Of a stretch of DNA of 64,000 bases, positions 2,957 through 3,502 are shown one piece after another; position 1 is the first letter of the stretch; each line of letters begins with the position of its first letter. The notes under the pieces were generated by a model. The model had not been told where the DNA came from. It worked only from the letters and a program-made list of their open reading frames with translations, and made no database searches. Origin of the DNA: Escherichia coli (GTDB lineage Bacteria; Pseudomonadota; Gammaproteobacteria; Enterobacterales; Enterobacteriaceae); NCBI RefSeq assembly GCF_003019035.1, contig NZ_CP027447.1, one strand, 5' to 3'. Both the position numbers and the translations under genes were made by a program.

Positions 2957-3502
2957 GGGTAATCCTTTGTAAGACAGAGAGTAAAATAAGTTACACACGT
3001 CGTATTTATGGCCGTTCATAACGGCACAGGTTTAATATCACAGGAGTGTCTTTATCTGACCGTAATGTTGCAATTGATCTATTTTCAAAATGTCTTTCGG
3101 GAAATGATTGTTTAAAGTATGTTGTTAAATTCTCATGTTAATTCAGTGTGTTATGTCAACTAATGTCATGAATGTTAAATTTTTAAAATTAACTTGATTT
3201 GGTGTATTGAGGTATTTGTGATCTACTTCTAATTTGCATTTTAGTGATATGGGTTTAGCCATGAGTAAATGCATTTCATAAAATTTAAGTCGAATTTCAC
3301 TGCAATTCATCTCTGCTTAATGTAAAAATAATGTTGAAAATAACAAATGGTTAATGATTCATGCGAATTATGACCTTAGTTAGCTCTTTTGATTTTTCGT
3401 AAAAAAGAGAGGTACATGAAGGTGCTACCAGTATGAGTAACGTTAATCAAAGGTTTTATTACCTCTGGCAATAACGCAGGCCATTTTCGCGACTGGGTGG
3501 AT

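Follow-up and report, generated by a model that had tools for sequence, protein, structure and literature searches.

LysR-type regulators recognise a generic motif, the T-N11-A box, of which TGA-N7-TCA is a case. For instance, MetR recognises TGAA-N5-TTCA at LysR-type promoters, and the GcvA/DsdC/AmpR subfamily provides a further example. The high-affinity site for such regulators is usually near position -65, with an activation site near -35. Classically, the site is found in the intergenic region separating the regulator from a divergent gene. Other B12-dependent catabolic operons, namely eut and pdu/cob, are controlled by EutR and PocR respectively, both of which are AraC-type activators. 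Direct repeats, 21 bp apart, are more typical of sites for AraC-type proteins or response regulators. Note that, in sigma-70 promoters, positions 2, 4, and 6 of the -10 hexamer are those that matter most.

Here, we consider the DNA upstream of glmS in a 64-kb stretch of the Escherichia coli genome (hereafter, the window). In this case, 'glmS' encodes subunit S of the B12-dependent methylaspartate (glutamate) mutase, and is the first gene of a glutamate-fermentation operon. The alternative meaning of the name, glucosamine-6-phosphate (GlcN6P) synthase, was ruled out. Hence, the glmS ribozyme is irrelevant. The glutamate-fermentation cluster is carried by many Citrobacter, Klebsiella, Salmonella, Yersinia, and Morganella, and by approximately 1 in 5 complete E. 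coli genomes. In E. coli O157:H7, no expressing conditions were found for the cluster among all laboratory conditions tried (PMC4682846). The literature that we searched contained nothing else on regulation of the cluster, and no published description of the promoter, operator, or regulator function set out below. We conclude that the DNA preceding glmS is an ordinary, hitherto undescribed, control region for this normally silent, B12-dependent, operon in E. coli.

The region is a 546-bp intergenic gap, on the minus strand, at window positions 2957-3502. Its edges are exact: the stop codon of a 140-aa ORF occupies positions 3503-3505 and the glmS ATG is at 2956. The G+C content is 32.6%, compared with 50.8% for the whole window; across the 64 kb, a content as low as this is reached by just 1.4% of windows of 546 nt. 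Two further segments, at 34026-34606 and 55497-56482, have a G+C content of 0.36 or less over 546-nt windows. An identical RefSeq genome has 43 gaps between annotated features in the corresponding 50 kb (median 75 bp), of which this gap is the third longest. It is present, with 88.8-100% identity, in 1135 of 5426 complete E. coli genomes, O157:H7 included, and RefSeq annotates nothing inside it in 30 listed genomes out of these 1135 carriers. The original prediction, of a strongly AT-rich and non-coding stretch of approximately 0.5 kb before glmS, is therefore borne out. The AT-rich zone is wider than the gap; it runs for approximately 2.8 kb, from position 2957 to the start of cydA, and takes in two AT-rich orphan genes. 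Reading along the minus strand, the 314-aa ORF and the 140-aa ORF are followed by the gap, glmS, and glmL (coordinates are in Table 1). The cluster then continues past the left end of the window with mutE, methylaspartate ammonia-lyase (mal), an atuA-like gene, DUF4387, a dicarboxylate/amino-acid symporter, the class I fumarase FumD, and cobO. In strain LR-62-2 (NZ_AP027576.1), IS903B is inserted in the stretch that matches window positions 2400-5800.

To describe constraint, variable sites were counted across seven E. coli alleles (Table 1). Within the gap, constraint is confined to the 156 bp adjoining glmS, where variability is below the rate for third codon positions (P = 4e-5). The original prediction also took the size of the gap to suggest a complex promoter or leader. 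A conserved promoter and regulator site are indeed present, but signal is limited to the approximately 150 bp beside glmS. The rest has a different origin. Sequences from E. whittamii and Escherichia sp. E1V33 match the window at positions 2506-3362 (to approximately 3253 for E1V33) and again from approximately 5111 onwards; the intervening 1.75 kb, with both ORFs, is missing from each. Furthermore, glmS is directly divergent from cydA, with a shared AT-rich intergenic region of 1.2-1.6 kb, in Citrobacter, the Klebsiella oxytoca group, Salmonella arizonae, E. whittamii, and others. Therefore, positions 3362-3502 are the flank of an inserted cassette and positions 2957-3361 are ancestral glmS upstream DNA. 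In every genus, whatever the neighbouring gene, glmS is preceded by a long AT-rich region (297-1574 bp, G+C 0.24-0.40) and the sequence of these regions is not conserved. Hence, the length of the gap in E. coli is largely historical, since all but the part next to glmS is fast-evolving AT-rich DNA plus the flank of the cassette.

The cassette spans window positions 3362-5111 and places two AT-rich orphan genes between the cydA and glmS control regions of E. coli; E. whittamii, Escherichia sp. E1V33, and other genera do not have it. Because their lengths are kept, and pN/pS is 0.14-0.72 (mostly 0.3-0.5), both ORFs look real. Searches of Pfam, NCBIfam, PADLOC, and PHROGs gave no family match for either. 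Homologues of the 314-aa ORF share at least 65% identity, and the sole one with a source name is from E. coli. Terminal repeats flanking the cassette were looked for and none were found; repeats inside the gap are short chance matches only. In the cryptic-clade genome of Escherichia sp. MOD1-EC7003 (L034 2061-3454), the homologue of the 314-aa ORF matches in three pieces only, with 50-69% identity, and the 140-aa ORF is matched in its last 48 residues only. It would seem that the cassette is either decaying or highly divergent in this genome.

Table 1. Features of the glmS upstream region, with window coordinates and variability across seven E. coli alleles
Feature	Position	Strand	Variable sites	Remarks
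cydA	starts 5754	plus		
314-aa ORF	4950-4006	minus		
140-aa ORF	3925-3503	minus		
3' flank of orphan-gene cassette	3362-3502	minus	34/141 (24.1%)	not homologous to E. whittamii
Distal AT-rich DNA	3113-3361	minus	44/249 (17.7%)	homologous to E. whittamii
55-aa ORF	3310-3143	minus		pN/pS ~1; lost in the most divergent E. coli allele (L003), truncated in E. whittamii and E1V33
Segment adjoining glmS	2957-3112		3/156 (1.9%)	
Upstream block AACAATCATTTCCCGAAAGACATT	3089-3112	minus		consensus tTTt-N3-4-AAGAt.T; AAGA up to 2 bits; invariant in E. coli
Dyad TTGAAAATAGATCAA, putative LysR-type site	3074-3088	minus		TGA-N7-TCA (T-N11-A box); abuts -35; centre ~-43
Predicted -35, TTGCAA	3068-3073	minus		TTG invariant in 51 sequences
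Predicted weak -10, GACACT	3045-3050	minus		17 nt after -35; 3/6 consensus match
Predicted 5' leader (~82 nt)	2957-3038	minus		from inferred start
Small 6-bp hairpin in leader	3025-3011	minus		partly kept, in Escherichia only
Shine-Dalgarno, AAGGA	2963-2967	minus		
glmS	2956-2507	minus		methylaspartate (glutamate) mutase subunit S; first gene of operon
Third codon positions of glmS and glmL			64/611 (10.5%)	

We fetched 80 loci encoding GlmS relatives and used the shared motif to anchor an alignment of 51 distinct upstream regions from Enterobacterales. The 51 sequences cover Enterobacteriaceae, Yersinia, Hafnia, Morganella, Budvicia, and Yokenella. All have the same layout: a T-rich/AAGAT block, then YTGA-N7-TCAA, an abutting TTGYNN, 17 variable nucleotides, and NANAYT. 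The string ATCAATTG is invariant in all 51 cases. The outer parts of the dyad, YTGA and TCAA, are kept in most; the left half-site is TTCA in Yokenella and the degenerate CTTA (CTTAC) in Morganella. In the window, the TGA-N7-TCA match to the T-N11-A pattern is at positions 3075-3087. The exact 15-mer, TTGAAAATAGATCAA, was found at 32 of the 80 loci, 30 of which belong to species besides E. coli, and is always 108-242 nt upstream of the glmS ATG. When clusters were scanned with a position weight matrix, the element occurred once in each, with a score of 27 compared with less than 11 for the next match. Hence, none of the clusters from E. coli, Klebsiella, Morganella, and Yersinia had a second copy of comparable score. 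The internal gaps before the symporter and fumD genes have no element. Outside of the Enterobacterales, the element was absent upstream of glmS at 27 of 27 loci. Elsewhere in the window (14878-15626), five identical weak matrix matches, AGTTGACTTTTAATCAATTGG, are in the anticodon arms of tRNA-Lys genes, in the lysT-valT cluster. Such matches to the motif are false positives of a trivial kind.

The layout next to the dyad is that of a sigma-70 promoter. The spacing is within 17±1 nt, and the spacer length is fixed at 17 in the 51 sequences, even though individual spacer positions carry only 0.2-0.9 bits. The hexamers match consensus at 7 of 12 positions. Across the alignment, positions 2 (A) and 6 (T) of the -10 element are invariant (2 bits) and position 4 (A) nearly so (1.9 bits). 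From this conservation alone, we infer a transcription start near position 3038, with GACACT as the -10 element. The original prediction called for a search for promoters and terminators. A generic promoter scan returned promoter-like sites at the frequency expected from shuffled DNA, with none at the conserved core, because GACACT matches consensus at only 3 of 6 positions. The promoter was instead recognised from conservation in the 51 sequences, and no terminator was found in the gap. Further upstream, at approximately -75 to -51 with respect to the predicted start, the block AACAATCATTTCCCGAAAGACATT is conserved and has no clear dyad. The block could serve the same regulator as an additional contact, or act as an UP-like element. 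A sigma-54 promoter, and a divergent promoter on the other strand, were both rejected when the sequence was read, since the spacings do not fit the conserved bases. The weak -10 element, and silence of the cluster in O157:H7, both fit with activator dependence. We consider it very probable that the core is a conserved, activator-dependent, promoter with a dedicated operator.

Our preferred model is as follows. The region would control a glmS-glmL-mutE-mal-(atuA-DUF4387-symporter-fumD-cobO) operon from a functional core, the 156 bp adjoining glmS. The core would be a weak sigma-70 promoter that needs an activator. This activator would bind the dyad abutting the -35 element and, probably, the conserved block just upstream. 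Transcription from near position 3038 would generate a leader of approximately 82 nt, for which no significant structure is predicted and in which the ribosome-binding region is conserved. As activator, the likeliest candidate is a LysR-type regulator, GcvA/DsdC-like, that accompanies the cluster. The other 390 bp or so, which have no conserved signal, would comprise 250 bp of ancestral AT-rich DNA and 140 bp of cassette flank. The former was at one time joined to the cydA control region and is likely an H-NS substrate. The observations behind the model are of sequence conservation, geometry, and genetic linkage; the transcription start, dependence on an activator, identity of the regulator, and H-NS binding are predictions. 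Taken as a whole, with core promoter, LysR-type activator, and unconserved remainder, we consider this model somewhat better than evenly supported.

In E. coli, the gene for the candidate activator closes the cluster, approximately 10 kb downstream of glmS, and is convergent with cobO. The encoded protein (WP_001214263) is of the GcvA/DsdC-like subfamily and scores below the curated cut-offs for both GcvA and DsdC. The protein is therefore classed as an uncharacterised paralogue, and its gene was also included in the cluster as drawn by Kronen and Berg (PMC4682846). Orthologues share 57-82% identity, and their linkage to the cluster takes six different forms. The gene is convergent after cobO, as in E. 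coli, in K. oxytoca, Citrobacter, Lelliottia, and Buttiauxella. In Yersinia, it heads fumD-cobO and, in Yokenella, it is upstream of glmS and divergent from a B12-uptake-like operon. The remaining arrangements all place the regulator after the cob operon: directly after, and convergent on cobO-fumD, in contig L102; in the same position, but with an M48 peptidase gene between regulator and cobO-fumD-symporter, in contig L099; and directly after, heading fumD-cobO on the same strand, in contig L101.

The strongest single item for assigning the operator to this regulator is from Yokenella. Here, the best direct repeat of the locus is a 29-nt element, with 90% identity between copies. One copy is upstream of glmS and the other is between the LysR-type gene and the divergent B12-uptake-like operon, where it is followed by TTGCCT, 17 nt, and TATATA. 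Both of the Yokenella sites read TTCA where others read TTGA, and the recognition-helix motif of the Yokenella regulator is TQGALFRQ, compared with TQSAVFRQ elsewhere. In Klebsiella, the regulator's own promoter has AATAGATCAA abutting a -35 element, 17-nt spacer, and -10 element, in the same register as at the glmS promoter. The equivalent promoter in Citrobacter keeps GGATCAA, and that in Lelliottia has only GGATCAC and a weaker -35 element.

Several observations count against the assignment. First, the regulator's own promoter in E. coli does not have the Klebsiella-type site. Second, Morganella (where the left half-site is degenerate), Hafnia, and Budvicia have no regulator within 10 kb of glmS but still keep ATCAATTG; in these organisms, the regulator may be at the far end of the cob operon, as in contig L101. 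Third, the site is not beside a divergent regulator gene in E. coli, and this configuration is found only for the second Yokenella copy. Fourth, the centre of the dyad is approximately 43 bp upstream of the predicted start, which is unusual for a LysR-type high-affinity site. Finally, the pattern in the Yersinia group can also be read as direct repeats of TCAA, 21 bp apart. The case that the operator belongs to the LysR-type protein of the cluster is close to evenly balanced, and perhaps marginally short of it.

Some E. coli, and Shigella dysenteriae, commonly have shortened alleles of the LysR-type regulator. The products include P0077 (189 aa, 180 member sequences) as well as P0007 and P0008 (279 aa each). 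Such alleles could make the cluster unresponsive in the strains concerned. A truncated regulator was rejected as the reason for silence in O157:H7, as the gene is intact and full-length in strain FRIK2455. In the lineage of the window, a hut gene set (hutU, permease, hutD-like, hutI, hutG, and a HAL-family lyase) adjoins the LysR-type gene (L088 4172-11913). Histidine would therefore feed glutamate into the fermentation cluster. In O157:H7, only the last 80 bp or so of the lyase gene remain, between sucD and the regulator (L100 6930-7010), indicating a deletion. Weak look-alikes of the element are also found upstream of fumD. These are TTGCAGAGAGAACAA, followed by TTGATT, in Yersinia (L091 4483-4503) and CTTATATATCA, followed by TTTGTT, in contig L101 (11365-11400). 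The look-alikes hint that fumD-cobO could be part of the same regulon.

An alternative is that the AT-rich stretch is a platform for H-NS nucleation, and silencing of horizontally acquired DNA, with no dedicated regulator involved, such that relief of silencing would suffice for expression. The gap, at 32.6% G+C, is inside a 2.8-kb AT-rich block, long AT-rich regions precede glmS in every genus, and the cluster was silent in all conditions tried (PMC4682846). In addition, repression by H-NS, with ArcA as antagonist, is known at the adjacent cydAB region (Govantes et al. 2000, as cited in PMC3708157). However, H-NS alone leaves unexplained both the exactly conserved motif of 15-29 nt, in a fixed register with the -35 and -10 elements, and the second copy of the element in Yokenella. 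Moreover, the distal DNA (3113-3502) shows no constraint. As the sole mechanism, H-NS silencing is consequently unlikely. The chances that H-NS binds somewhere in the region are, in our estimation, even; positions 3113-3361 are a candidate H-NS platform, or simply a spacer. Given AT-rich composition alone, silencing by H-NS is plausible as an added layer, compatible with the activator-dependent promoter. No paper linking H-NS to methylaspartate mutase was found in the literature searched.

As a second alternative, the oxygen sensor FNR, or another protein of the CRP/FNR family, might use the element as a class II site and so activate the operon anaerobically. The glutamate-fermentation pathway is anaerobic, and its enzymes include an oxygen-labile class I fumarase (PMC4682846). 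There is also a perfect ATCAA half-site directly before the -35 element which, taken as part of a 14-mer, would be centred at approximately -42.5. Even so, the best match to the full FNR palindrome, TTGAT-N4-ATCAA, has 3 mismatches. Furthermore, the spacing between half-sites is one base too long in 51 of 51 sequences, being N5 (TGA-N7-TCA) rather than N4 (TGA-N6-TCA). CRP/FNR dimers are not known to tolerate a spacing shift of one base. The central bases of the dyad are also invariant within the Enterobacteriaceae, which a protein reading only the half-sites would not require. We therefore regard this explanation as improbable, and the suggestion of an anaerobic regulator site in the original prediction finds no support in the FNR sense. 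Consensus scans of the gap for FNR, CRP, ArcA, IHF, NarL, Lrp, Fis, and H-NS motifs returned nothing convincing. A CRP-like sequence, TGTGATCTACTTCTAA, with 2 mismatches, is at window positions 3217-3232. This is approximately 186 bp upstream of the predicted start and is partly kept in E. whittamii.

The element could, in principle, be read by an activator outside the LysR family that recognises direct repeats; candidates would be a response regulator or a protein of the AraC/XylS type, as are PocR and EutR. An asymmetric and fully invariant site, overlapping the -35 element, would be typical of such proteins. ATCAA recurs 21 bp upstream in Yersinia, and the cluster adjoins cob genes in many genera. 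Conversely, the upstream ATCAA repeat is not kept in the Enterobacteriaceae, and no gene for an AraC/XylS-type protein or response regulator is consistently linked to the cluster; an AraC-type gene was found only in K. oxytoca. We consider it quite improbable that a regulator of this sort is responsible.

It is most improbable that the region specifies a small protein, a small RNA, or a cis-acting RNA such as a cobalamin riboswitch or another leader. In favour, the gap is long and contains a 55-aa ORF, the enzyme is B12-dependent, and Escherichia species show near-invariance over the final 60 nt of the leader. Against, a permissive Rfam search of positions 2400-6000 gave only chance-level matches to eukaryotic snoRNAs and miRNAs, all outside the gap, the leader folds no better than shuffled sequences (z = 0.09), comparison of 12 genera revealed no conserved structure or covariation (the alignment fold has 3 trivial pairs), no promoter-terminator pair was found in the gap, and the ORF is neutral and lost in relatives. 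Hence, the small RNA of the original prediction is not supported, since Rfam has no match in the gap and no significant or conserved fold was found in the leader. Its remark that no obvious riboswitch signature was recognised agrees with our Rfam search, which found nothing at positions 2957-3502. Likewise, no conserved small ORF fills the region, as the only one of any size evolves neutrally.

Some further features are worth recording. The last 60 nt or so of the leader (2957-3016) are almost invariant in E. coli, E. whittamii, and E1V33, and the glmS coding sequence is only approximately 81-85% identical. This pattern suggests a constraint on the leader specific to Escherichia, which might reflect, for example, translation control or a small-RNA target. 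A scan found no canonical terminator in the gap between the 140-aa ORF and glmS. The 3' flank of the 140-aa ORF (3355-3510, minus strand) has a predicted fold of -33.5 kcal/mol (z = -2.87) and does not have a terminator-like U tract. Transcription may read through from the cassette into glmS. Within the operon, between DUF4387 and the symporter gene, there is a perfect, strong, hairpin formed by GTAGATGCCTGAAT and ATTCAGGCATCTAC (L001 3167-3326). This may be an internal terminator or a processing site.

Returning to the LysR-type activator, a broader proposal is that the element is the operator of an Enterobacterales-wide regulon, comprising the glm-mal operon, fumD-cobO, and the B12-uptake operon of Yokenella, and so a master switch for the 'cryptic' methylaspartate pathway. 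We offer this proposal tentatively. If correct, the effector of the regulon, either glutamate-derived or B12-related, would explain the failure to switch on the cluster in E. coli O157:H7. In any case, now that the promoter has been predicted and both a precise operator and a named regulator can be put forward as candidates, silence of the cluster becomes directly testable. The control region is otherwise conventional for bacteria. Hence, the biology is ordinary, and the value of the region is as a precise handle on a widespread metabolic island that is silent in the laboratory.

Finally, we compared the region, which would work as a catabolic promoter dependent on a regulator, with known systems. 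Like the cydAB control region, it is long and AT-rich and, in several genera, the two form one shared divergent region. Unlike the situation in those genera, glmS and cydA of E. coli are separated by the cassette with the 314-aa and 140-aa ORFs. Also unlike the cydAB region, the glmS promoter has no conserved consensus of the ArcA or FNR type. FNR class II promoters, with TTGAT-N4-ATCAA at -41.5, share with the glmS promoter an ATCAA sequence by the -35 element, a similar position, and a connection to anaerobic metabolism. However, the spacing at glmS exceeds that of the FNR palindrome by one base in all homologues, and there is no match to the left half. By sequence, then, the region is not an FNR class II promoter, nor is it a known RNA element or coding DNA. 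The parallel with eut and pdu is one of logic, since a dedicated activator would switch on an otherwise silent B12-dependent pathway. Linkage of the cluster to cobO, and to cob or btu genes in many genera, is a further parallel with other B12-dependent operons. In this instance, the candidate regulator is LysR-type rather than AraC-type. With respect to LysR-type promoters, the differences are that the dyad is at approximately -43, not -65, and that the E. coli regulator gene is 10 kb away and convergent, so not divergent from its putative target. The similarities are as follows: TGA-N7-TCA fits the T-N11-A pattern, the promoter is weak, the site abuts the -35 element, a GcvA/DsdC-like gene is linked, and the Yokenella copy of the site is in the divergent intergenic region of the regulator. 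Judged by motif and linkage, the region therefore appears to resemble LysR-type controlled promoters most closely.
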